Assembly: GCF_037126435.1 (NCBI RefSeq)
Contig: NZ_CP147020.1
Coordinates: 1,651,293-1,715,292 of the forward strand
DNA: 64,000 nucleotides
Origin: Bernardetia sp. ABR2-2B
GTDB lineage: Bacteria > Bacteroidota > Bacteroidia > Cytophagales > Bernardetiaceae
Reading direction: 5' to 3'
Position numbers and translations under genes: made by a program
The notes under the pieces: model-generated
The model's input: the letters and a program-made list of their open reading frames with translations, nothing else
Told to the model about the DNA's origin: nothing
Database searches by the model: none
Part shown: piece after piece, positions 2,354-18,256 of the stretch
How the letters are laid out: each line of letters begins with the position of its first letter
Numbering within the stretch: position 1 is the first letter of the stretch

Positions 2354-5300
2354 TTATTCTTTTACAATACGAACTGTCATTGTTTTGTCAGCATCAGAAA
2401 CTTGAAGCAAATACAAACCAGAAGCGTGTTTTTCTAAGTCTATTGTACCTTCCAAGAATGCACCTTCTTTTGATTGTTCTGATTCAAAGATTACTCTTCC
2501 TGTTGCATCAAACAAACGAATCGTATAAGCTCCTTCTCTGTCCGTTTTCAAACTATATGAAAAACTGTTTGGTGTTGGATTAGGATAAACCATCAACTTT
2601 TCATTTTCAAAGAAATCTTGACTTGCATCTGTTTTGAATAAAAGAACAAAACGCTTGATTTCATAACCTTTCTTAGCTTCAAACTTATAATCGCCTTCTG
2701 CTTTCAAATTATGAAGTGAATCGGTCAAAGAATCATACAAGTATAATTCGTGCTTAGAGTGGAAATATTTCATCGAACGAAGCGTAATTTCATAGTCTCC
2801 ATCTTTCAAAATATTCATTGCCAAAGGTAGCGTTTGATTTTCTTTGAAACTTCCCAAACCATTGATTGCAAAATATTCGCTTTCTTGCCCTTCTTCATTT
2901 TCATTGTAAGAATACAACGTAGAACGAGTAGCATTCATTTTGTGAAGTTTGGCAGCATCGTATTTTCCATCAAAGTTGGTTGTTGCACCTGCTTGGAAAT
3001 AAACTGTTGTCTCATCTAATGAATTACTAGATTTGAGGGCAACTCTAATCAAACCTTCCTTCAAATTTTCTGTCTCGGTAGTCTTAAAGAAACGAGTATC
3101 TGTCGTTAGACGAACTCCATTGTTCATATTGACTGTTCCTCCAGCCGTTGTTCTGACAAAGAAACCCTGCATAGAAGCAATTTCCTTTTTACCTCCATTA
3201 TTAGAAACTCCATTTACATATTCTGCAAAAACACCTTGGTATTGATTCACTGGAATATCAATATAAACAGCATCTTCAAGACCTGTAGAAGCAGCTAAAA
3301 CAAGTTCCCAATCGATAGGCGAAGGATATGGATTTCCTATTAAATTATACCCTTCTTGACTAAATCCACCACCACTATTTGTAACAGCAATAGACTGGTT
3401 GCCATTGTTGAGTGTTCCATTCAAATCTACTGTTACGCCTGTTGCAATGTTGGCTTGATAACCTCTAACAGCAGTCAAGTTTGCAGTTGTTGGTACTTTA
3501 TAATTTGAAATAAATGGATTATAATATGCACTTGTAACTGCTCCTGCATTTGTTTCTTCATATTGGAAGAAGGTAGGGAAAGGACGAACAAAAGCTGGTT
3601 CTGGAGCTGTGTTATAAGCTGTTGTCAGAACTAATCCCATATCATCTCCAAACTGTGAGACCGTTGCATCTGAAAAAGGAGAAGAAAATAAATGATAGCC
3701 CAAACCATCCGTACCACCTACGTCTGAAACAGCAGGTAAATAGCGTTCCATAATAACTGTTCCAACGATGGTATTGGTTGTAGAACCATTTATGAGTAAA
3801 GCTGTTTCATCTGTTGTCGAACGAAGAGCAAAATCTTGTCCTGTATTGACAGTCATTTGTGCTGTTCCTTCCATTTCTAAGACTTTATTTATGCTCATAT
3901 AGCCATCAATAATAAGACTAATTCCTGTATTTACTTTTATACCATCAATATTAATATCAGTATAATCTGTAAAAGCAGTAGGAGAAGTAAACGTTAGGTT
4001 TTTATCAACAACTACATTTTCATCATAAAGTCTAGCAGATTGTGGTTCAATAACATCGTTTGCTATTGCTGCATCAACGGCTTGTTGAATAGTAGGATAG
4101 AAAACACCTGTACGAACCAAAAGTACATCGCCAGAGGAAGTATTTATTCCCTCTACTGCAAAATCATAAGCTGCTTCATCACAATCATTATTATTTATGG
4201 TAATGGTGGCATTTTTTGTTCCTCCTCCTGAAGGAGTAAAAGTAACATCAAAAGTTGCTGTTCCACTTGCTGCTACCACAGCAGGAACATTACTAACTAC
4301 AAAATCCCCACTATTTGTACCACTAGAAATAATAGAAGAAATGGTAAGAGCTTCCGTTCCTGTATTCTCAATTGTGTATGTAATAGTTCGTAAAGTAGTA
4401 TTTCCAAAATCAGTATCATCAGCTACATCTGGTGTTACATCGCCATCTGTAATAGAGACTGAGTTACCTAAAACATCAATTTCTCTTGTAGAATTTACCG
4501 TTACCGTTTGTGTGGCTGTTACCGTATTTCCATTTCCATCATCTGCTGTCCAAGTAACAGTTGTATTTCCAATAGAAAAAGGAGGTGTCGCATCATTTGT
4601 AAATGTAGGTGTTCCACAATTATCTGTTCCTGTTGGTGTGCCTAAAGCTACTCCAGAAGCTGTACAAGCTCCTACATCTGTATTTACTATTACATTAGTT
4701 GGTGCTGTAATGGTTGGATTTGTTACATCATTAAGAATTACATTTTGGTCAGCAGTAGATGTATTTCCATTTCCATCATCAAATGTCCAAGTTACAACGG
4801 TTGTACCTTGTGCTGTGATTGGAAATATTGTTCCTGTTGTTCCTGTAACAGTTCCAACACAGTTATCTGTAGTTGTTGGAGCAGTTGGTGTAGCGCTACA
4901 TTCAGCCGTAACATCTGCTAATGTCGGAACTACTGGAGCAGTAATATCATTAAGAATTACATTTTGGTCAGCAGTAGATGTATTTCCATTTCCATCATCA
5001 AATGTCCAAGTTACAACGGTTGTACCTTGTGCTGTGATTGGAAATATTGTTCCTGTTGTTCCTGTAACAGTTCCAACACAGTTATCTGTAGTTGTTGGAG
5101 CAGTTGGTGTAGAGCTACATTCAGCTGTAACATCTGCTAATGTCGGAACTACTGGAGCAGTAATATCATTAAGAATTACATTTTGGTCAGCAGTAGATGT
5201 ATTTCCATTTCCATCATCAAATGTCCAAGTTACAACGGTTGTACCTTGTGCTGTGATTGGAAATATTGTTCCTGTTGTTCCTGTAACAGTTCCAACACAG

Positions 5301-8300
5301 TTATCTGTAGTTGTTGGAGCAGTTGGTGTAGAGCTACATTCAGCCGTAACATCTGCTAATGTCGGAACTACTGGAGCAGTAACATCATTAAGAATTACAT
5401 TTTGGTCAGCAGTAGATGTATTTCCATTTCCATCATCAAATGTCCAAGTTACAACGGTTGTACCTTGTGCTGTGATTGGAAATATTGTTCCTGTTGTTCC
5501 TGTAACAGTTCCAACGCAGTTATCTGTAGTTGTTGGAGCAGTTGGTGTAGAGCTACATTCAGCCGTAACATCTGCTAATGTCGGAACTACTGGAGCTACA
5601 TTATCAGCTGTTCCATTTCCATTAATTGCAAAAGTATAAGGGTTTTCATCAGCATCATCGTTAGTAATAGTTACTAAAGCAGCTCTATTTCCTGTTGCAG
5701 AAGGATCAAAAGTAACTGTAAAAGTTTGTGTTCCTGTTGTAGCTGCTACTGTTGCAGGGAAAGCAGGAAGACCACTTAAAGTAAAATCAGCAGCATTTGT
5801 TCCTGTTACAGTAATATTATTTACTGTTAAAGCTGCTCCACCTGTATTTTGAATAGTATATGTCTTAGCAAGATTATTCGTTCCACATTCAGCTACACCT
5901 CCAAAATCTGTATCATTAGTCGGACTTGTAGTTCCTGTTCCACTAACAATATTATTTCCATTACCTTGTACATTGATTTCAGGAAATAGGGATTGGATTC
6001 CTTGTACTGCAAAATCATAAATTGCTTCATCACAGTCATCATTATTTACAGTAATAGTTGCTGTTCTTGTTCCTGCCCCAGAAGGTGTAAAGGTAACGTC
6101 AAAAGTAATACTATTACCTGCCATTATTGTTGCTGGTAGCGTAATGTTACTGATTACAAAATCTCCTGCATTTGTACCACTTGAAACAATTGAAGAAATT
6201 GCCAAATCTGCCGTTCCCGTATTCTCAATAGTATAAGTAATTAATCTATCTGTAACTACAGTTCCAAAATCAGTGTTATCAGCTACATTTGGTGTAGCAT
6301 CACCATCTACAATAGAAACAGAATTACCTAAAAGATTAATTTCTTGTTGAGGAGTTGCAACTGTTCCACTAACTCCATTAGCAGATCCATCTATCCAATT
6401 TGAAGTAGCTCCTGCTAGAGAAAACCCAGTTAGTGTTCCATCATTGTTACTAGATGTTAGGTCATTAAGGGTTGTAAGTCCTGCATTATTACCTGCTGCA
6501 AGACCTTGATTAAAATTATAATAGGTTACTAAACCAGCTTCTGTTCCTATCAATTCATTATTCATATTAGCCTTAATCTCTGAACAAGTACGAGCTGTAC
6601 TCCAGATTCGAATTTCATCTAATGCTCCTTCATAGTTTCCATTTGTAAGCCCTCTTCCTATAAATAGTGTTGAAGAAGCGGGAACATTATGTACGCCTGG
6701 GACATCACTTTTTTGTAATTCACCATTTACATATACACTTCTAGTTGTTCCATCGTAAGTAGCAGCATAGTGATACCAATTTCCTGATAAGTCTGTTAAA
6801 GGTATATCTATATCATTAGCCCACCAGTAATGTCGTATTCTTAAAGATGTATTAATATTTACTTCAATTGCATTAGCTTGATTATTAACAGCATTTCCCC
6901 ATCCAATCACACCTCTCACTCCTGATAGAATAGGTTTGAACCATAATTCAATAGTATATGGATCATTGCCAGTTGGAAGGTTGGTAGGAGTTGCTATTGT
7001 TATTAGGTCATTGTTACCATCAAAATCAAGTGCAGTAGCTGGGGAAGCAGCTGGAACGAAAGTAATAAGGAAGTTATCAACTGCAGCACCAACATCTGTT
7101 ATAGTAACATCAGATTTGAATACTATTCTAAATGCTACGTCAAGATTTCCTGCTAAACTAGAAACATCAAGTGATTTTGTAAAATAGTTTGCATTGGTAG
7201 CAGACATAAATGGAGTTCCTGAAGGACCGAATACTGTAGGGTCTGGACCACCTCCAATTACCGAGTTATACCAAGCTGCACCTGTAGTAGCTGTTCCTAA
7301 TTTTGTCCAAGAAGTACCTCTGTCAGTAGAATATTCTACAATCATTCCATCATAACCTGTTTCATAAACATGCTTTGTTTCAAAGGATAAATTATATGTA
7401 CCTGCTGCAGAGAAATCAAAGTTAGGTGCATAAAGGTTAGAATGTGAATTATTCAAATAATCTCCTGTAAGACCTGTAACCCATGCGTTTGCACCACTTG
7501 CTGTTCCATTTTTTCCTGCTGTGGCAGAGTTTCCACGTTCCCACATTGTTGCTCCTCCTACATTATCGGCTGCAAAGTCTAATGGATTGACATCAAAGTT
7601 TCCTCCATCAGTAATAGCATAAGGTACAGGGCGATCTGGTAAAACAGTTATAGTTCTAGTAGTAGTCAGGACTCCTCCACCTCCGTTTATGCTAAGAGTA
7701 ATTGTTTTGATACCTGGAGTAGAATAAGAAATTGTATGAGGACCTGTTGTATTGGCAGTAGCTGTACTTGCACCAGCATCAAAGTTCCAATCCCAAGAAG
7801 TAGCACCTGCTGAGGCATCAGTAAATATTACATCTTTATTCATATAAACAAGATCCTTATCTGCTGAAAAATCAGCAGCAGCAGGAGAAAATACATTTGT
7901 TGTGAATATGCCTCTACCATGTGTAGCTACTGCAACTAGATTATCAGAACTACGAATTTGGAACATATCACAACGAGTATTAGCAAGTCCTGTGCTTGAT
8001 AATTCCCAAAAATCGCCAGCAGCACCTGCTGTAATATCATCTGTACTCCAAACACCTGTTTCTGTTGCAATCAATACTTCATTCGTATTATTAGGATTAA
8101 ACATTGCCCAACGAACTGGCATATCTGGTAAGCCGTGTGCAGTATCTTTGCTTGTCCAAGAAGTTCCTCCATCGTCTGTGTACCAAACGCTCTGTGCTCC
8201 GTAGTTAGAATACGTAACTACCATCTGATTTTCGCTTGTACCAAATTCAATAGAAGAGACAGAACCTTGCGTTTGCATAGTACCGTTTGATAATACAGTT

Positions 8301-10360
8301 CCTGTTTTATTTGGTCCTCCACCTGCATTTGCATTAGGAACTCTTACTACTTCCCCTGCACTTGTACCTATATAAAGCGTTGTAGAAGCAGCTGTAAAAG
8401 GAGAAGCTTTTAAGTGTGTAACGTCTCCAGTCATACCTGTTACATTATAATCATTACGAGTTCCACCTGGAACAGTCCATCTAGCAAAGTTTCGATTTCC
8501 TTTGGAAGATGAATAAAGTAAATCTAAATCATCATGATAATCTGCTGGATTGATAAATTCTCCTGTATTGTTGTCTCCAGCTCCTAAGTCTATAAAATTA
8601 CCTCCTCCATTAGTAGATACATAGAAATTGTTAAATACATACGAACTAATCTGAATATTTGGATTATCTTGGTCTATAAAACAAAATGCTCCATCTCCTC
8701 CAGTTGGTTGCGTACTTCCACCTACTCCTGCTGAAGTAAGTTTACGTGTTCCATTATCTTGTGTACCTCCGAGTAAATAATTAGAACCATTATTCGGATT
8801 CATTGCAACAGCATAAAACTGAGTAACATTATATCCTGAATTTCTATCATTGAAAGCAGGAGTACCAGCTTGTATATTTGCACTATACGAAACACCACCA
8901 TCACTACCTACTAACATCTCATCAGAACTACCTGGTTTGTAAGCAAAGGCATGAATATCTGCATGAACATAAGGTCCACACTCACCTGTCCAGTAAGAAA
9001 TAGATGTCCAGTTTGCTCCTCCATCAGTTGTACGGTGTACATCAATACCACCAACAACTACATGATTAGGATTAGTAGGGTTCACTTGTAAAATTAAATC
9101 GTACCAAGCTTGTCCACGAGTAAATTGCGTTCCATTAGTAGCACAGCCTCCTTGATTACGGTATAGTGGAATAGTTACATCTGTCCAAGAAACACCTGCA
9201 TTAATAGATTTTTTGAAGAATGCAATATTATTGGTGCTTGCATCATGTGCAACAGCATATAAAATATCGCTATTTGATGGTGCAGATGCAATCTCTATTC
9301 TTCTTGTGTTAGCAGAAATACCAGCAGGTGTTACTTCTGTCCAGTTTACTCCATCATTCGTCGATTTATAAATAGAGCCTACAACTCCTCCAAATAATGC
9401 AGTTGTTCCATAAAGAGTACCATCAGCAGCTACTTCCAAATCAGCAGCACGAGTAGAGGTTTCAGGCAATGTTACTTTTACCCAATTAGTTCCTCCATCA
9501 GCAGAGCGAAAGATACCACCACTATTTGCACTAGTAGAGTTGAACCCATCAGTACGACAAGCTGCAAGTAGTGTTCCTGTAGGAGTTACTACAATTTTCT
9601 GTACATATTGAAAATCATCTGTTACTGTAGGTGAAGTATTAGCTAGTCTTGCCCAATTAGCTCCTCCATCAGTAGTTTTCCAAATACCTGCACCACGCTG
9701 CATTCCACCACCAAAGAAACCTTCTCCAGTAGATACATACATGTTTTGTGTATTTGATGGGTCATAAGCAATAGATGAAATTGCTATATTTTCCCAAAAA
9801 TTATCAACAGCTACCCAAGTTGGGTTAGCTACTGTAATATCATTGGTGTACCAAAGTCCACCACCAACACCACCAGCCCAAACCTTTCTGCCTGTAGCAT
9901 CATTTGGGTCGTACATAAGCGCACGAGTACGTCCACCTACATCATTAGGACCACGTTCTATCCAGTTTACCCCAGCAATAGCTCTTTGATTTTGGCTAAG
10001 AGCATTCAGACGTAAATCTGTAAATTCATTTGCTTTTATACGAGCATTTTCAGGAATATCACCTGTATTTGGATTTGCTGTGCGTAGATAATCTTGAAGC
10101 ATTGCTAAATCTGGACGATCTTTTTTTGCAATTTTTTTCAAGTCTTTTTTTGACCAGCCTTGATATTTATTATATAAGGCTTGATAGTAAGCATATTTTT
10201 CTTTCCCTTTTAGTTGTGAAGGGTCTTTAACTTCTGATAATTCAGAGAGCAGTAATTCATTTTTGGAATTATTTTCCCAAATCAAATACCCTGTAGTACT
10301 TATTAGGAAAAATAGAACAAATCCAATAATATAATTGGAATAGGAGGAAAGGTTTTTCAT
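2354..10360 (-). CDS. giant T9SS-secreted cell-surface adhesin (BNR/sortilin-like repeats, LamG-like jelly-roll, HYR-like Cys-containing repeats, C-terminal T9SS sorting domain)
   Basis: 2668-aa ORF. Multiple S/TxDGGxxW BNR-like motifs in the N-terminal third. LamG-like signature (DEIRIWSTARTCSEIKANMNNEL). Four near-identical 73-aa units (APVVPTLADVTAECSSTPTAPTTTDNCVGTV...). The C-terminal ~80 aa (KLMVYPNPTPNSFSYSL...LYLLQVSDADKTMTVRIVKE) matches the T9SS type-A CTD pattern. Confidence 0.85.
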   Translation of the reverse strand: MKNLSSYSNYIIGFVLFFLISTTGYLIWENNSKNELLLSELSEVKDPSQLKGKEKYAYYQALYNKYQGWSKKDLKKIAKKDRPDLAMLQDYLRTANPNTGDIPENARIKANEFTDLRLNALSQNQRAIAGVNWIERGPNDVGGRTRALMYDPNDATGRKVWAGGVGGGLWYTNDITVANPTWVAVDNFWENIAISSIAYDPSNTQNMYVSTGEGFFGGGMQRGAGIWKTTDGGANWARLANTSPTVTDDFQYVQKIVVTPTGTLLAACRTDGFNSTSANSGGIFRSADGGTNWVKVTLPETSTRAADLEVAADGTLYGTTALFGGVVGSIYKSTNDGVNWTEVTPAGISANTRRIEIASAPSNSDILYAVAHDASTNNIAFFKKSINAGVSWTDVTIPLYRNQGGCATNGTQFTRGQAWYDLILQVNPTNPNHVVVGGIDVHRTTDGGANWTSISYWTGECGPYVHADIHAFAYKPGSSDEMLVGSDGGVSYSANIQAGTPAFNDRNSGYNVTQFYAVAMNPNNGSNYLLGGTQDNGTRKLTSAGVGGSTQPTGGDGAFCFIDQDNPNIQISSYVFNNFYVSTNGGGNFIDLGAGDNNTGEFINPADYHDDLDLLYSSSKGNRNFARWTVPGGTRNDYNVTGMTGDVTHLKASPFTAASTTLYIGTSAGEVVRVPNANAGGGPNKTGTVLSNGTMQTQGSVSSIEFGTSENQMVVTYSNYGAQSVWYTDDGGTSWTSKDTAHGLPDMPVRWAMFNPNNTNEVLIATETGVWSTDDITAGAAGDFWELSSTGLANTRCDMFQIRSSDNLVAVATHGRGIFTTNVFSPAAADFSADKDLVYMNKDVIFTDASAGATSWDWNFDAGASTATANTTGPHTISYSTPGIKTITLSINGGGGVLTTTRTITVLPDRPVPYAITDGGNFDVNPLDFAADNVGGATMWERGNSATAGKNGTASGANAWVTGLTGDYLNNSHSNLYAPNFDFSAAGTYNLSFETKHVYETGYDGMIVEYSTDRGTSWTKLGTATTGAAWYNSVIGGGPDPTVFGPSGTPFMSATNANYFTKSLDVSSLAGNLDVAFRIVFKSDVTITDVGAAVDNFLITFVPAASPATALDFDGNNDLITIATPTNLPTGNDPYTIELWFKPILSGVRGVIGWGNAVNNQANAIEVNINTSLRIRHYWWANDIDIPLTDLSGNWYHYAATYDGTTRSVYVNGELQKSDVPGVHNVPASSTLFIGRGLTNGNYEGALDEIRIWSTARTCSEIKANMNNELIGTEAGLVTYYNFNQGLAAGNNAGLTTLNDLTSSNNDGTLTGFSLAGATSNWIDGSANGVSGTVATPQQEINLLGNSVSIVDGDATPNVADNTDFGTVVTDRLITYTIENTGTADLAISSIVSSGTNAGDFVISNITLPATIMAGNSITFDVTFTPSGAGTRTATITVNNDDCDEAIYDFAVQGIQSLFPEINVQGNGNNIVSGTGTTSPTNDTDFGGVAECGTNNLAKTYTIQNTGGAALTVNNITVTGTNAADFTLSGLPAFPATVAATTGTQTFTVTFDPSATGNRAALVTITNDDADENPYTFAINGNGTADNVAPVVPTLADVTAECSSTPTAPTTTDNCVGTVTGTTGTIFPITAQGTTVVTWTFDDGNGNTSTADQNVILNDVTAPVVPTLADVTAECSSTPTAPTTTDNCVGTVTGTTGTIFPITAQGTTVVTWTFDDGNGNTSTADQNVILNDITAPVVPTLADVTAECSSTPTAPTTTDNCVGTVTGTTGTIFPITAQGTTVVTWTFDDGNGNTSTADQNVILNDITAPVVPTLADVTAECSATPTAPTTTDNCVGTVTGTTGTIFPITAQGTTVVTWTFDDGNGNTSTADQNVILNDVTNPTITAPTNVIVNTDVGACTASGVALGTPTGTDNCGTPTFTNDATPPFSIGNTTVTWTADDGNGNTVTATQTVTVNSTREIDVLGNSVSITDGDVTPDVADDTDFGNTTLRTITYTIENTGTEALTISSIISSGTNSGDFVVSNVPAVVAASGTATFDVTFTPSGGGTKNATITINNNDCDEAAYDFAVEGINTSSGDVLLVRTGVFYPTIQQAVDAAIANDVIEPQSARLYDENVVVDKNLTFTSPTAFTDYTDINIDGIKVNTGISLIIDGYMSINKVLEMEGTAQMTVNTGQDFALRSTTDETALLINGSTTNTIVGTVIMERYLPAVSDVGGTDGLGYHLFSSPFSDATVSQFGDDMGLVLTTAYNTAPEPAFVRPFPTFFQYEETNAGAVTSAYYNPFISNYKVPTTANLTAVRGYQANIATGVTVDLNGTLNNGNQSIAVTNSGGGFSQEGYNLIGNPYPSPIDWELVLAASTGLEDAVYIDIPVNQYQGVFAEYVNGVSNNGGKKEIASMQGFFVRTTAGGTVNMNNGVRLTTDTRFFKTTETENLKEGLIRVALKSSNSLDETTVYFQAGATTNFDGKYDAAKLHKMNATRSTLYSYNENEEGQESEYFAINGLGSFKENQTLPLAMNILKDGDYEITLRSMKYFHSKHELYLYDSLTDSLHNLKAEGDYKFEAKKGYEIKRFVLLFKTDASQDFFENEKLMVYPNPTPNSFSYSLKTDREGAYTIRLFDATGRVIFESEQSKEGAFLEGTIDLEKHASGLYLLQVSDADKTMTVRIVKE
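4728..5603. repeat. four near-identical 219-bp direct tandem repeats inside the adhesin gene, plus a degenerate fifth unit at about 4509-4727
   Basis: Unit starts at 4728, 4947, 5166 and 5385 all begin tcattaagaattacattttggtcagcagtagatg, with only a few single-base differences per 219 bp. They encode the 73-aa HYR-like units. Confidence 0.9.
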
Positions 10361-10654: not shown

Positions 10655-11869
10655 TTAACTCAACTTAGCAATAGCATTTTTGATTCTTTCAATCGCTTTT
10701 TCTATCATCTCCTCTGAAGTAGCGAAAGAAAGACGGATACAATTTGGCGCACCAAAAGCATCTCCCATCACAACAGCCACATGCGCTGTTTCTAATAAAA
10801 ACATAGAAAAATCTTCTGAATTTTGAATTTTTTTACCTTCAAAAGACTTTCCATAAAAATGACTTATATCTGGAAAAACATAAAATGCTCCTTGTGGCGT
10901 ATTGCAATTAAAGCCTTCTACTTCATCCAAAAGAGATTTGATTAACTTTCCTCTTTTCTGATAGGCTTTATTCATTTCCTCTACTTCTTCTCGGCTTCCA
11001 TTGAGAGCAGTAACAGCAGCGTGTTGGGTAATGGAATTTGTACCAGAGGTAACCTGTCCTTGGATTTTATCACACGCTTTTGCAATCGTTAGAGGAGCAG
11101 CAGCATAACCCAAACGCCAACCTGTCATGGCAAAACCTTTTGAAAGACCATTTATAGTAACTACTCTATCTTTCAAAGATGCTACTCTTCCAATACTAAA
11201 ATGAGGCTCACCAAAATTGATATATTCATAAATTTCATCTGCAACGACTGTAATCTGCTCGTGTGGTGCAATTACTTCTGCAATTTCTCTTAATTCTGTT
11301 TCAGAAAAAACACTTCCCGTTGGATTACAAGGCGACGAAAAAATAACTGCTTTTGTTTTTGAAGTAATTGCTTCTTTTACCTGATTTGCTGTTACTTTAT
11401 AATCATTTTCTATTCCTCCTTTTACAAAAACAGGCTTTCCTTGTGCAAGTTGTACGATTCCGACATACGAAACCCAGTAAGGAGTAATGATAATTACCTC
11501 GTCGTCTTTATCCAAAAGGGCTAACATCACATTAGCAATAGACTGTTTTGCTCCTGTCGAAACTACAATTTGTTCAGCAGAATAATCTAGCTCATTTTCT
11601 CTTTTTAGCTTATCAGAAATAGCTTGACGAAGTGGCGCAATTCCAGCTACTGGTGTATAACCAAAATGTCCGTCATCAATCGCTTTTTTGGCTGCTTCTT
11701 GAATAAAAAGAGGTGTTTTGAAGTCTGGCTCTCCCAAATTCATATTGATAATATCGTGTCCTTCTGCTTTGAGTTCACGGCTTTTACGAGCCATTGCAAG
11801 GGTTTGAGATTCTTCCATTTCGGAAACACGACGAGATAAAGTTTCTGTATTTACGGCTGTTGTGGACAT
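10655..11869 (-). CDS. aspartate/aromatic aminotransferase, class I PLP-dependent
   Basis: NGLSKGFAMTGWRLGY (PLP-lysine region), SSPCNPTG, and ~400-aa length. The likely true start is the internal MSTTAVNTETL, because the tool ORF start adds a hydrophobic leader. Confidence 0.8.
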   Translation of the reverse strand: MSTTAVNTETLSRRVSEMEESQTLAMARKSRELKAEGHDIINMNLGEPDFKTPLFIQEAAKKAIDDGHFGYTPVAGIAPLRQAISDKLKRENELDYSAEQIVVSTGAKQSIANVMLALLDKDDEVIIITPYWVSYVGIVQLAQGKPVFVKGGIENDYKVTANQVKEAITSKTKAVIFSSPCNPTGSVFSETELREIAEVIAPHEQITVVADEIYEYINFGEPHFSIGRVASLKDRVVTINGLSKGFAMTGWRLGYAAAPLTIAKACDKIQGQVTSGTNSITQHAAVTALNGSREEVEEMNKAYQKRGKLIKSLLDEVEGFNCNTPQGAFYVFPDISHFYGKSFEGKKIQNSEDFSMFLLETAHVAVVMGDAFGAPNCIRLSFATSEEMIEKAIERIKNAIAKLS

Positions 11870-12188
11870 AAGGAGTAGTATTAGTGTCGTTGGTGAAGAC
11901 ACCAACAATGGCAAAAAATATTTTCATGAAGAAATTAATAAAGCAAAGCTAAAAAATTGTTGGATAGGTAGCAATTTTTGTTTGGTAGATTTTTTTCAGT
12001 AAAACCTGATTTTGATATTTTTGAAAAATAATAAAATTGTGTTATCTTTTGTATTGGACAATAAAAGGTACTAAAAATAATAATGTGTTAAAGTAGAATT
12101 AACTCTATTAGGTATACGAAAACTAACATCTAAAATAAGTTAAAAAACTATATATCAAACCTAAAAACTAAACTTACAAGTTGAATAA

Positions 12189-12758
12189 ATGAAAATAGAT
12201 AGTATCTTTGGGGTAATAAGAGGCAGTTTGTACTCTGTAAAATATGAGAATGAGGATAAAGATGAGTTTGTAAGAGTCTTTAATGAATGGTCAGACGTTG
12301 AGTTTTTAGGTATTTTTTTTGATACACATATTAACGACTTACAAAGTGGATTTTATGGAAATATAACTCCTGACGAAGCCATTGACATTACTGTGGATAA
12401 GTCACATGAGCTTGAAGATGAGTTATTATATACAGCTGAAATTGGGAAAACAGATGATTATGATACACTTCAAATATTGTTCAAACCTCTTGATAACAAA
12501 GAGTATAGAATTACAGAACATCAACAAACTAAAGCATACGGTTTGGAACACAAAAGTTGGCTGAGGATATATGCAATTAGAATTTCAAAAAACTGTTTTG
12601 TTGTCTCTGGTGGTGCTATCAAACTAACAGAAACTATGAATGAACGTGAGCATTTACGAAAGGAATTAAGAAAATTAGAGATAACAAAACAATATTTGAT
12701 TGATAATGGTCTCTTTGATGCAGATAATTTAGAAAACTTTATAACAGAACAATCATGA
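12189..12758 (+). CDS. TAC-module toxin candidate: C-terminal HigB/Gp49-like (RelE/ParE-fold) region with a ~100-aa N-terminal extension
   Basis: First gene of a 4-nt-overlap coupled triad. The C-terminal segment WLRIYAIRISKNCFVVSGGAIKLTETMNER resembles the R-I/V-F/Y-Y...ivLLxgfxKK core of Gp49/HigB-type toxins. An XRE antitoxin gene follows immediately, which is the HigB-HigA gene order. Confidence 0.35.
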   Translation: MKIDSIFGVIRGSLYSVKYENEDKDEFVRVFNEWSDVEFLGIFFDTHINDLQSGFYGNITPDEAIDITVDKSHELEDELLYTAEIGKTDDYDTLQILFKPLDNKEYRITEHQQTKAYGLEHKSWLRIYAIRISKNCFVVSGGAIKLTETMNEREHLRKELRKLEITKQYLIDNGLFDADNLENFITEQS

Positions 12759-13210
12759 TAAATAAAGAACTACAAAAAAAACTTGATACTCTTACTGCTG
12801 GTAAAAAAAGTAGTTGGGAAAAGGAAGCTAAGTACCGTCAAGCGAATAGAAAATGGCTAAGATATTCACGAAAGATTGCTATTAAAATTAATCGTCATCT
12901 TAAAGATAACGGTATGCAAAAACAGGAATTGGCTACTTTACTAAATGTTTCTCCTCAACAGGTAAGTAAAATAGTGAAGGGAAGAGAAAACCTAACTTTG
13001 CAAACAATATCAAACATTGAAAAAGCCTTAGGAATTTCATTGTTAGGACTTGATTCTAATAGAGAAAAGAAAACTAAAGTAATTTTAAAAAAAACAGAGA
13101 TTACCTATACACAACCAACTCAAGAAAATGATTTTTATCAAAAAAAGTCGGCAAAAGTAGTGGCAATACTCCCTATAAATAATCAAAGTTTAACAGAAGT
13201 GTACAACTAA
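12755..13210 (+). CDS. XRE-family helix-turn-helix protein, HigA-like antitoxin candidate with a C-terminal extension
   Basis: HTH signature MQKQELATLLNVSPQQVSKIVKGRENLTLQTISNIEKALGISL, followed by a ~60-aa low-complexity C-terminal tail. Its start overlaps the upstream stop (ATGA) and its stop overlaps the next start. Confidence 0.6.
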   Translation: MINKELQKKLDTLTAGKKSSWEKEAKYRQANRKWLRYSRKIAIKINRHLKDNGMQKQELATLLNVSPQQVSKIVKGRENLTLQTISNIEKALGISLLGLDSNREKKTKVILKKTEITYTQPTQENDFYQKKSAKVVAILPINNQSLTEVYN

Positions 13211-13632
13211 TGGAAGGAATACAATTTAGTTTAAAAAAAATTAATACAGATCAATTTGCTATCATTGAAGATGCTTATAATAGTCAAATTGAGGATATAA
13301 ATTTAGAGATTCATATAAATTTCGGAACAAGTTCGGAAACTACTTCTATTGTTTCAATTATTAAATTTCAGTTCAAACAAAATGAGAAATCTTTTTTAAT
13401 TGTAGAAGTTTCTTGTGAATTTAGTGTTGAAAAAAGCAAATGGAGTGAATTTCGCAAAGAGGGTAAACTAATTATTCCACAAGGTTTTTTAGCGCATTTA
13501 GCTATGATTACAGTTGGTACAACACGAGGAGTATTACATTCAAAAACTACTAATACAAAATTTAATGATTTTATATTACCTACAATAGATATTACAAAAA
13601 TAGTTACTGAAGATGGTAAATTCGATGAGTAG
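13210..13632 (+). CDS. SecB-like chaperone (TAC chaperone candidate)
   Basis: 140 aa. It aligns by eye with E. coli SecB: IQFSLKKINTDQFAIIE vs FQIQRIYTKDISFE; KSFLIVEVSCEFSVE vs TAFLCEVQQGGIFSI; PQGFLAHLAMITVGTTRGVL vs [21 protein letters not shown]; KFNDF vs VNFDA. Confidence 0.5.
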   Translation: MEGIQFSLKKINTDQFAIIEDAYNSQIEDINLEIHINFGTSSETTSIVSIIKFQFKQNEKSFLIVEVSCEFSVEKSKWSEFRKEGKLIIPQGFLAHLAMITVGTTRGVLHSKTTNTKFNDFILPTIDITKIVTEDGKFDE

Positions 13633-13703
13633 TAAGCTTCCATCTTTACTGATGTTTGAATAGAAAACCATTTTTACCTTACTTGAATACTTTTTTTCAA
13701 ACT

Positions 13704-13758
13704 ACTGTCAGAGTTATTTTGGATTACCAAAACAACTGCTGACAAAGTTCATTTTTAT
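13704..13758. terminator. imperfect hairpin terminator between the convergent TAC cassette and the peptidase gene
   Basis: tgtcagagttattttgg-attacc-ccaaaacaactgctgaca followed by a T-rich run. Confidence 0.4.
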
Positions 13759-13762
13759 AAAA

Positions 13763-15445
13763 TTACAACCCCAAAACATCAGCCCCCTGCTCAAAAATAA
13801 TATCAACAGGAATATTTGCATCAGAAAGTCTGTCTAAGTCAGCTTGTAAATCAGCTTTGATAACTCCCATTTCGTTTGCCAACAGCGTTACACCTTCGTA
13901 ATCGCCATCGCCTTGAAGTGTTAGTATTTTAGCAGAAAGTTCGTTTACAGCTTCTGCCATTTTATCTGGATTTACTTTGTATGTTCCGTCTTCTAACTTT
14001 TCGAAAGCTCCTTTTTCATTGAAAAAGTTAAAGCGAATCATATTTGCTTTTCCGTGTGCCGAAGCAGCACCAAAACGAACAGAACGGAAAATACCAGCCA
14101 AGAAAGTAGTATAATTATCCATCAATTCTCCTTCTGAAAGTTCGCCCATTTCACGCAATTTAGTAACCATATACAGACCTAAAATATCAGCTTTTCCTTC
14201 TTCTAAAGCAGAAGCTAAATCTTTCAAAGATTCTCTAACTGTTCCTTTGTCATTAATGGTATTTTTGATTCCTAATCCGTGAGCCACTTCATGAAACATT
14301 GTATTTTCGAAGAAAGCATCAAAAGTGATATGTTTTCTTTGCTCTGGCGTAATGAGCATTTCAGAAATAGGCATCAAAATTTGGTCAAACTTTGCCTTCA
14401 TAGCATTTTTTAGCTGCGAACGACGAGTACCTTTTTTGAGTTGTACTTCTTCATCATTTGGAAGGTTTACAGCAATCGTTTTGCTACCTGCGTTACAATC
14501 TCCAGCATAAAAAACAACATCATAGGCATTAAGTTGAGAATCTGACCCAGGTTTTTCGGCTTTGTATTTCGCATCAACAGGCAAATCTTTTTGAAGTTGT
14601 GGCAATAAAGCAGCATATTTTTCCAAACGCTCACTCCACGTTTTATCTTTTACCAAAACATATGAAGAATAAGCAGCTTTTTGTCCATACAAATGGTCTT
14701 CATAGGTTTCTATTGCACCAATAATAATATCGATACCGTTGGTTTTCATATCCATCCATGCCATATCACTTGCCATATAATCATCTGTGGTAATGGCATC
14801 GGCACGAAGAGTAAGGTGTTTTTTCAAGCCTTCATCTTCTGCTATTTCGGCAGCTTGGCGTAAATAATCAGCAGCTTTTTCTAGATCTGCCTTAAATTTT
14901 TCGTGATAAGGAACTATCATTAGCTTTCCTTCTGCATCTCTGCGAAGAAATGTATAAAGACTTGATTTTTCTTCATTATCAAAGGCTTCATACTCCTCCT
15001 TTGTCATATCTGTTGGGTAGAAATTTGCGCCGAGAGGTTTTTCTCCTACACCTTCCATAAAGGGTTGATTATTTTCTAATCTATCCCAAAGACCATAGTT
15101 TATTTCTACAAACTTTTTTGTGTCTGCATCATCTAAAGTAGCCATCAAGCTATCTTTATCGCCCATATAGGCTTGTTGCCAAAACAAACCATCCATTATT
15201 TTAGCTGCTTCTATAAGGAGTGGAATCATTTTCTTTTCACTTTCTGAAAGAGTGCTAATATCAGTAGTGAGTTTGAAGGGAGCATAAATTTCTGGACGAA
15301 CAAGCTCGTTTTTAGTTTCTACGACTACACTTGTTGTATCAGTAGTAGTTTCAGTAATTGCTTTTTTATCTGGTGTACAGTTCCAAAAGCCTAGACAGAT
15401 AGCCATTGATAGAACAGCTAGTTTTGATGTTTTTTTGATGTTCAT
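13763..15445 (-). CDS. zinc-dependent metallopeptidase-like lipoprotein (HExxH; possibly M49/DPP3-like)
   Basis: Lipoprotein signal MNIKKTSKLAVLSMAICLGFWNC and an HEVAHGLG zinc-binding motif in a 560-aa ORF. Confidence 0.5.
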   Translation of the reverse strand: MNIKKTSKLAVLSMAICLGFWNCTPDKKAITETTTDTTSVVVETKNELVRPEIYAPFKLTTDISTLSESEKKMIPLLIEAAKIMDGLFWQQAYMGDKDSLMATLDDADTKKFVEINYGLWDRLENNQPFMEGVGEKPLGANFYPTDMTKEEYEAFDNEEKSSLYTFLRRDAEGKLMIVPYHEKFKADLEKAADYLRQAAEIAEDEGLKKHLTLRADAITTDDYMASDMAWMDMKTNGIDIIIGAIETYEDHLYGQKAAYSSYVLVKDKTWSERLEKYAALLPQLQKDLPVDAKYKAEKPGSDSQLNAYDVVFYAGDCNAGSKTIAVNLPNDEEVQLKKGTRRSQLKNAMKAKFDQILMPISEMLITPEQRKHITFDAFFENTMFHEVAHGLGIKNTINDKGTVRESLKDLASALEEGKADILGLYMVTKLREMGELSEGELMDNYTTFLAGIFRSVRFGAASAHGKANMIRFNFFNEKGAFEKLEDGTYKVNPDKMAEAVNELSAKILTLQGDGDYEGVTLLANEMGVIKADLQADLDRLSDANIPVDIIFEQGADVLGL

Positions 15446-17731: not shown

Positions 17732-18256
17732 ATGAACTTGTTTCCATTTCGGTCTTCCTTGTATTCCATTCTATTTTTGCTCTCTTTTTCATTTTTAGCC
17801 TTTAGTTGTGAAAGCACAAAACAACCAGAAAATACCTATGCAGTACAGATAAAACCAACTTTTTTGAGTGTAGATGAATCGCCTTCAAATGCCAAAAATT
17901 GGGACCCTGTCAATATGTTTTCTTACGACCACAAACCAGATGTTTATTATGAAATTTGGCTTGGACAAGACCGTATTTTTGAGTCTGAATCTATTAAAGA
18001 TGAGTTTACACCAAAATGGGATAGCGTAAAACCATTTTATATTCCAGACACGAAACCAAATGCAGAACTAACTATCAAGTTTTATGATTTTGATAAAAAA
18101 ATGGGAGTCAAGACAGGGCGTTTTTATAATAATGATGACCTTATCGGAGAACTCAAAATATCAATTGATGAGCTTCGAAAGAAGGCACAAAACTTTGATA
18201 CACTAAGCTTTGGAAATGTAAAAGCGTGTGTTTTTGCTGAACCAGTTATGAAATAA
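17732..18256 (+). CDS. lipoprotein with a C2-domain-like region
   Basis: Signal MNLFPFRSSLYSILFLLSFSFLAFSC. IKFYDFDKKMGVKTGRFYNNDDLIGELKISIDEL resembles the C2-domain xDxDxxxxDDxIG pattern. Confidence 0.35.
   Translation: MNLFPFRSSLYSILFLLSFSFLAFSCESTKQPENTYAVQIKPTFLSVDESPSNAKNWDPVNMFSYDHKPDVYYEIWLGQDRIFESESIKDEFTPKWDSVKPFYIPDTKPNAELTIKFYDFDKKMGVKTGRFYNNDDLIGELKISIDELRKKAQNFDTLSFGNVKACVFAEPVMK

Follow-up and report, generated by a model that had tools for sequence, protein, structure and literature searches.

A three-gene cassette and its relatives

The 64,000-nt window of Bernardetia sp. ABR2-2B analysed here (contig NZ_CP147020.1, positions 1,651,293 to 1,715,292; coordinates below are those of the window) contains a cassette of three forward-strand genes, ORF1, ORF2 and ORF3, which we examine as a candidate toxin–antitoxin–chaperone (TAC) module. 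A sequence-only reading of the same DNA had placed these genes behind a 274-bp AT-rich leader, between an aminotransferase gene and a convergent peptidase gene, and had described both junctions within the cassette as ATGA overlaps. The three open reading frames (ORFs) are present in the ORF list and in the raw sequence, the flanking genes encode a class I/II aminotransferase and an M49 peptidase (Table 1), and the whole leader (11915-12188) is indeed 274 bp long, with 21% G+C. The description of the junctions is accurate only for ORF1/ORF2, which share a 4-nt ATGA overlap (12755-12758). ORF2 and ORF3 share a single base in a TAATG sequence (stop 13208-13210, start 13210-13212). Both types of junction allow translational coupling.

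Table 1. Positions of the cassette genes and adjacent features within the window
Feature	Position	Strand	Length	Locus tag	Remarks
ORF1	12189-12758	+	189 aa	WAF17_06915	Predicted toxin
ORF2	12755-13210	+	151 aa		XRE/HigA-like antitoxin candidate
ORF3	13210-13632	+	140 aa	WAF17_06925	SecB-fold candidate chaperone
ORF2 C-terminal tail (residues 101-151)	13055-13207	+			Candidate chaperone addiction (ChAD)-like segment
AT-rich leader	11994-12188	+			Left edge of variable slot; putative promoter/operator region
Trailer	13633-13762		130 nt		Extends to the stop codon of the convergent M49 peptidase gene; right edge of variable slot
Class I/II aminotransferase	10655-11914	-			Upstream neighbour of the cassette
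M49 peptidase	13763-15445	-			Downstream, convergent with the cassette

Relatives of ORF3 are found in 267 of 185,579 species-representative genomes. We compared the 80 best loci, which are nearly all from Bacteroidota (Flavobacteriia, Cytophagia, Bacteroidia and Sphingobacteriia), with a few bins labelled otherwise; 77 of them have room upstream for a full cassette. The gene order proposed from the sequence, toxin followed by antitoxin and chaperone, is kept as a colinear ORF1-ORF2-ORF3 array in 71 of these 77 species-level loci. The spacing between ORF2 and ORF3 is -1 nt in 35, -4 nt in 5 and -8 nt in 9 loci (49 of the 71), and the two genes overlap by any length in 56. Overlap or abutment of the antitoxin and chaperone genes is the criterion by which Sala et al. 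recognised TAC and antitoxin–chaperone (AC) loci (PMC3581621), and the Bernardetia cassette has this organisation, being a co-directional operon in which these two genes overlap.

The ORF1 family is large, comprising 1319 clusters at 50% identity (E<=1e-3). The top 150 matches of an exhaustive search of representatives are all full-length members of the ORF1 family, with no bridge to known families. Three distant ORF1 relatives were sampled: two are part of the three-gene layout and the third lies on a contig that ends just past the gene.

Departures from the common layout mostly affect the toxin gene or the partner of the chaperone. The toxin is truncated in L008 (5310-5519), where ORF1 residues 112-182 remain, it is absent from L022, where an antitoxin-chaperone pair is left, and its place is taken by an IS1595 transposase in L080 (4454-5380). 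These three loci correspond to the AC remnants of Sala et al. In a Prolixibacteraceae genome (L073, 4884-5977), the chaperone gene is preceded by genes for a 130-aa ORF1 relative (hhalign E 8e-5, core strands) and a 234-aa antitoxin with two helix-turn-helix (HTH) domains. A SecB-like gene in a Marivirga metagenome-assembled genome (MAG) (L081, 1166-2119) follows a gene for a non-HTH protein of 159 aa ending in ...NYALAA, which resembles an ssrA tag; in this genome the ORF3 chaperone family seems to work with another partner. Pfam does not recognise the alternative partners found in L081 and L172. Finally, the ORF2 and ORF3 homologues of a Bacteroidales MAG (L034, 5536-6420) are joined in a 294-aa ORF, through either a natural fusion or a frameshift error.

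Sequence features and predicted folds of the three proteins

ORF3 has no match in Pfam, NCBIfam, PHROGs or PDB sequences at E<=10, whether searched as a single sequence or as a family profile. The match to SecB (PF02556) that the sequence-only reading expected is thus not obtained even at this threshold, and the family profile retrieves no SecB sequence from PDB. The same reading had aligned ORF3 with Escherichia coli SecB by eye. However, BLASTP returns no alignment between the two proteins at E<=100, the hhalign probability is 0.1%, and the local alignment does not stand out from shuffles (z=0.3). Since neither ORF3 nor its family profile shows similarity to E. coli SecB, this alignment was discarded as evidence.

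The SecB-like nature of the third protein is instead supported by its predicted structure. The AlphaFold2 model, built from a 40-sequence alignment, has a mean predicted local distance difference test (pLDDT) score of 94.8 and contains an antiparallel sheet of four long strands together with two helices, one short and one long (residues 91-112). All Foldseek matches to PDB with a probability of ~1.0 are SecB-fold chains. ORF3 matches Mycobacterium tuberculosis Rv1957 in complex with a ChAD peptide (5mtw; E 8.7e-4, template modelling (TM) score 0.57) and E. coli SecB (1qyn; TM 0.59-0.62), with further matches to Haemophilus influenzae SecB (1fx3, 1ozb) and SP1558-like proteins (2o2a, 2hng). The next fold class, hot-dog thioesterases, is reached only at TM<0.36. 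Sequence identity of ORF3 to the solved SecBs is ~10-14%. Conservation within the family is highest in the long helix (P90, H96, G103, R106, G107, L109), the region that Sala et al. identify as the single motif conserved among SecB and TAC chaperones; PF02556 covered 25 of the 60 TAC/AC chaperones in their set (PMC3581621). ORF3 also matches the hidden Markov model (HMM) PD-T4-9_C (CmdC) over its full length at 2.8e-3, and two relatives do so at 2.3e-5. PD-T4-9 is CmdTAC, the C component of which is a validated SecB-like TAC chaperone (PMC9519451). The model places ORF3 among SecB-fold proteins, as a candidate dedicated chaperone. Two members of the ORF3 family give weak matches to KwaB (DUF4868, Kiwa defence; E 1.8e-4), which are possibly noise.

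ORF2 consists of a conserved N-terminal segment (residues 1-45), an HTH domain (residues ~40-103) and a variable tail (residues ~101-151). The anticipated combination of an HTH_3 domain with a tail is borne out by a Pfam HTH_3 match (1.6e-11, residues 50-97; 44.5 bits against a cut-off of 23) and by the ~50 variable residues that follow it. The NCBIfam HigA model TIGR02607 scores 25.8 bits (6.7e-6), under its cut-off of 47.7, which leaves ORF2 outside the HigA definition. Matches to HipB-type antitoxins are weak and under the cut-off as well, and those to PDB sequences are confined to the HTH. ORF2 is a candidate XRE/HigA-like antitoxin and probably an autorepressor.

The tail was compared among 73 non-identical ORF2 orthologues. 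It is present in every one of them (median 54 aa, range 38-86 aa), with a mean pairwise identity of only 9%, versus 38% for the N-terminal segment and 51% for the HTH. Tails of the family are enriched in aromatic residues relative to the body of the protein (Tyr 7.1% versus 1.3%; Phe 4.5% versus 1.6%), and 27 of the 73 orthologues (37%) have an ssrA-like AA or VA C-terminus, such as ...LKLVA, ...EYKMAA or ...HIAA. Published ChAD segments vary in length and sequence (PMC5105189), are recognised via aromatic residues and carry a ClpX-type terminus, which is Ala-Ala in CmdA and Val-Ala in HigA1 (bioRxiv 10.1101/2024.02.24.581848). At the level of the family, the sequence properties of the ORF2 tail therefore appear to fit those of ChADs.

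ORF1, searched as a single sequence and with family profiles, likewise has no match in Pfam, NCBIfam, PHROGs or PDB sequences (E<=10). Its C-terminus had been expected to show either the Gp49/HigB family (PF05973) or a RelE fold, and the predictions favour only the latter. PF05973 gives no match to ORF1 at the same threshold and no recurring signal in 41 relatives scanned singly against Pfam. When the 73-member ORF1 alignment is compared with one built for Gp49, starting from phage N15 gp49, the hhalign probability is 0.2%, because of which membership of ORF1 in Gp49 at the sequence level was dropped. The AlphaFold model of ORF1, obtained from a 41-sequence alignment (pLDDT 93.9, predicted TM-score 0.90), has HigB 6af4/6af3 as top Foldseek matches, and its best structural matches are HigB toxins, with the TAC toxin among them. 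The model covers nearly the entire HigB chain; the N-terminal strand(s) and helices are therefore predicted to belong to the RelE-type fold, rather than to a separate domain of ~100 aa as proposed previously. The predicted antiparallel sheet, flanked by helices, is superposable on RelE/HigB toxins. On the basis of the model, ORF1 is predicted to be a member of the RelE/ParE superfamily (Barnase-EndoU-ColicinE5/D-RelE, or BECR, fold) that is nearest to Gp49-type HigB and contains insertions.

The size of these insertions was estimated by anchoring on the aligned core motif. With K145 matched to K95 of M. tuberculosis HigB1, ORF1 has about 50 extra residues before the core strands and about 14 after them; with K145 matched to K82 of N15 gp49, the corresponding values are about 60 and about 23. 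A long helix follows the sheet (residues 154-172), a trait of Gp49-type toxins (PMC9098466). In the ORF1 family, where mean column identity is 34%, no variation is seen at R126, Y128 and K145, and K115 is nearly invariant. By their order and spacing, though not by superposition, K115-R126-K145 resemble R68-R77-K95 of HigB(TAC) and K54-R61-R81 of RelE (PMC9098466).

Genomic setting of the cassette

The cassette is found at the same site in B. litoralis DSM 6794 and, with a decayed toxin gene, in a Cytophagales MAG. All three genes are under purifying selection, with ratios of nonsynonymous to synonymous substitution rates (dN/dS) against B. litoralis of 0.19 for ORF1, 0.26 for ORF2 and 0.14 for ORF3, compared to 0.13 for the aminotransferase. 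The G+C content of the cassette (27-31%) is below that of the flanking genes (34-41%). Two metagenome contigs, L090 and L091, come from closer relatives, with peptidases 89-90% identical to that of ABR2-2B. In both, the aminotransferase and peptidase genes are adjacent, without the cassette, and homology to the window stops at 11993 and restarts at 13763. The cassette is replaced by a 490-bp interval with an unrelated ORF of 144 aa (L090 2940-3374; also in L091), for which no Pfam match was found. The break in homology and the different gene in these relatives indicate that the cassette is accessory cargo in a variable slot, which answers the earlier suggestion that this junction be compared among related strains. 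Decay and loss of the toxin, partner swaps (L073, L081), low G+C and variability of the slot amount to toxin–antitoxin-like evolutionary behaviour.

Mobile-element genes had been noted as missing from the neighbourhood. This holds for the stretch that was searched with Pfam, which spans nine flanking genes between the aminotransferase and a point ~10 kb downstream of the cassette and includes no transposase or integrase gene, but the slot itself is variable. On the upstream side the scan was limited to the aminotransferase, beyond which lies a gene for a 2668-aa protein (2354-10360, - strand). Judging from its translation, the latter protein has four near-identical tandem repeats of ~80 aa (VVPTLADVTAECS..TAPTTTDNCVGTVTGTTG...QNVILND) and an apparent C-terminal sorting tail of the type IX secretion system. 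Beyond the M49 peptidase lie genes for FKBP, OmpA, a C2-domain protein, DUF6688, an AMP-binding enzyme, a phosphoribosyltransferase and a Band-7 protein. The C2 domain (PF00168, E 1.6e-9) is in a 174-aa protein (17732-18256, + strand); C2 is a lipid- and calcium-binding domain, mostly found in eukaryotes.

A Bacteroidetes -7-like TAnnTTTG sequence occurs in the leader at 12016, within an imperfect palindrome (12009-12037), and the block is conserved with B. litoralis. A sigma-70 promoter scan of the leader gave results no better than shuffles. The leader may act as the promoter and operator of the cassette. The terminator scan likewise did not rise above shuffles, and the trailer yielded no terminator-like site.

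Other genomes place the cassette in a defence-related context. In Solitalea lacus (L004, 2161-10728), it is located between hsdS and hsdR of a type I restriction-modification (R-M) operon, with putAbiC after it and relaxase and NikA-like genes before it. HsdR domains are the commonest (8-12 proteins) among 128 immediate neighbours from 66 loci, followed by HsdS (4), with two each of HsdM and GmrSD; integrases, IS200 and HipA are also present. The cassette thus often has a type I R-M operon as its neighbour and, at one locus that was inspected, lies within such an operon.

Relation to known systems and interpretation

The TAC systems characterised so far come from Actinobacteria and Proteobacteria, and their SecB-like chaperone also serves as a phage sensor. 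The M. tuberculosis TAC consists of HigB1 (Rv1955), HigA1 (Rv1956) and SecB(TA) (Rv1957), none with detectable sequence similarity to the Bernardetia cassette, which is from another phylum and has a predicted function. ORF1 is ~65 aa longer than HigB1 and has both a helical insertion and an additional helix at the C-terminus, and ORF2 of Bernardetia lacks the Val-Ala degron of HigA1. With E. coli HigBAC and CmdTAC (PD-T4-9), the family shares the tripartite operon, a defence-related context in other genomes and an aromatic-rich antitoxin tail, which in many orthologues ends in Ala-Ala as in CmdA; the chaperone family is also weakly linked by sequence to that of CmdTAC, through the PD-T4-9_C matches given above. 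There are also differences. CmdT is an ADP-ribosyltransferase, whereas ORF1 has a predicted RelE fold, and the E. coli HigA ChAD is ~96 aa long, versus ~50 aa for the ORF2 tail. HigBAC and CmdTAC are prophage-borne, whereas the Bernardetia-type family has no match in the phage collection and a single one in the plasmid collection, on a 1-Mb Persicobacter replicon. Members of the Gp49/HigB family (PF05973), such as phage N15 gp49 and Streptococcus pneumoniae HigB, are ~103-125 aa long versus 189 aa for ORF1, and show no significant HMM or HH match to it.

Links at the sequence level come from PADLOC alone, whose HMMs of the candidate system PDC-M64 match ORF1 at 1.9e-9 (partial, residues 122-169), ORF2 at 4e-16 (4e-16 to 2e-11 for PDC-M64C/B) and ORF3 at 2.5e-11 (full length). 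They also match 40 of 40 ORF3 relatives (PDC-M64C) and 49 of 73 ORF1 relatives. The scores of the cassette are those of a distant relative of the sequences behind these models, not of those sequences themselves. PDC-M64 is a catalogue entry without a description, and no paper mentioning the name was found in the searchable literature. The toxin had been called an undescribed variant; its architecture is new, although the module is not fully uncatalogued. Sala et al. reported TAC/AC loci in seven phyla, only some of which are named in the text, with no Bacteroidetes among those named (PMC3581621). No description of the Bernardetia-type family was found in the searchable literature. The expression 'toxin-antitoxin-chaperone' is combined with Bacteroidota or Flavobacterium terms in none of the top-ranked literature matches. 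What is new here is the toxin architecture, the very divergent chaperone lineage and the large, mostly Bacteroidota family, while the principle is already familiar.

Collectively, the cassette resembles mycobacterial and E. coli HigBAC in architecture and predicted function. It conforms to the structural and organisational definitions of a TAC, but falls outside the sequence definitions of Pfam SecB, Pfam Gp49 and NCBIfam HigA. We regard a tripartite TAC module of the HigB-HigA-SecB type as the likely identity of the cassette. The interpretation offered by the sequence-only reading is thus supported, although through predicted structure instead of the profile matches it expected. By analogy, the TAC-type module probably functions in abortive-infection defence.

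A mode of action can be proposed from the parallel with M. tuberculosis HigBA1-SecB(TA) and with E. coli HigBAC/CmdTAC; toxicity and RNase activity, dependence on the chaperone, the trigger and the defence phenotype are all inferred from these systems. ORF1 would be a HigB-like toxin that most probably cleaves mRNA as a ribosome-dependent endonuclease; K115, R126 and K145 are its candidate catalytic basic residues. ORF2 would neutralise ORF1 by binding through its N-terminal segment and HTH and would probably repress the operon from the AT-rich leader. Its aromatic-rich, non-conserved tail may be prone to aggregation or proteolysis unless held by ORF3, presumably a tetrameric SecB-fold chaperone that would be made in step with ORF2 via the overlapping stop and start codons. 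If ORF3 were titrated away, for instance by a surge of unfolded proteins or by a structural protein of a phage, ORF2 would be lost and ORF1 released, so that translation would stop, resulting in growth arrest or abortive infection.

Several observations weigh against a TAC assignment. ORF2 of ABR2-2B ends in ...TEVYN and, as in the rest of the Bernardetia and Tenacibaculum clade, has no AA/VA degron. ORF1 has ~70 extra residues, and its catalytic-residue equivalences come from order and spacing. The Foldseek E-values of ORF3 are modest (~1e-3, TM ~0.6). No sequence profile supports membership in Pfam SecB or Gp49, so that homology rests on predicted structures. Moreover, the cassette of Bernardetia is surrounded by housekeeping genes, with synteny shared by two species, and the flanking genes that were scanned include none for defence. 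Because of the latter, a defence role in this genus is extrapolated from other genomes: it is supported by the context there and by the precedent of HigBAC, CmdTAC and MqsRAC, not by anything at the Bernardetia locus.

Part of this evidence would suit a HigBA-like two-component pair accompanied by a SecB-fold protein that is not a ChAD chaperone, but a second neutraliser, a pure phage sensor or a protease adaptor. The missing degron, the position of ORF3 outside Pfam SecB with its low identity to solved SecBs and the weak KwaB matches in its family agree with such an arrangement, and the ORF2-ORF3 fusion in L034 fits any obligate partnership. However, the ORF2 tail is present wherever ORF3 is, SecB-class chaperones are the only folds resembling ORF3, and tail composition, stop/start overlap and gene order agree with those of characterised TACs (PMC3581621, PMC5105189), which makes this arrangement improbable. 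Less probable still is a domesticated, non-toxic regulatory cassette kept for a host function, in which ORF2 would be an ordinary XRE factor, ORF1 a dead RelE-fold partner and ORF3 a stabiliser. Non-toxic HigB paralogues do exist in M. tuberculosis (PMC9098466), and domestication would account for the stable synteny amid housekeeping genes in B. sp. ABR2-2B, B. litoralis and the Cytophagales MAG, for purifying selection as strong as that on the neighbouring aminotransferase and for the lack of mobile or defence genes among the scanned flanking genes. It is at odds with the invariant or near-invariant basic residues at the expected RelE-type catalytic positions, in a family with a mean column identity of 34%, with the loss or truncation of the toxin gene alone in several lineages, as is typical of active toxins, with the close relatives that have no cassette (L090/L091) and with the association with R-M loci in other genomes.

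Although a few database entries of family members are named 'Preprotein translocase subunit SecB', a general SecB export chaperone with an incidental HTH neighbour is highly improbable, and ORF3 was dismissed as a housekeeping SecB. Its relatives are too rare, the full cassette is too regularly kept together and the gene is missing from the locus in close Bernardetia relatives; ORF3 also has no Pfam SecB match, and SecB itself is rare in Bacteroidetes, with 9 of 3813 UniProt SecBs annotated there (PMC4361572). Each of these three explanations fits fewer observations than a TAC module does.

A broader version of the TAC interpretation can be put forward only tentatively. The cassette could be the founding example of a large, mostly Bacteroidota TAC-type defence family that is missed by the Pfam SecB and Gp49 models and caught by the distant PDC-M64 HMMs only. 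The inserted helical module could alter the target or the control of the HigB-like toxin, the SecB-fold protein could be a phage sensor in a phylum largely without SecB, and placement in type I R-M operons could reflect functional coupling, with abortive infection as a back-up when restriction fails.

The existence of TACs in Bacteroidota would not surprise a specialist, but this family is of considerable size, escapes standard profiles and lends itself to experiments, and structure-based searches are needed if such modules are to be annotated in Bacteroidota. If the cassette works as its characterised counterparts do, the TAC principle extends to Bacteroidota via a family missed by SecB and HigB sequence profiles. 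It would then add a new, enlarged HigB-like toxin architecture and provide hundreds of natural chaperone/tail pairs for studies of recognition specificity, while the recurring position between hsdS and hsdR would offer a testable case of layered defence.

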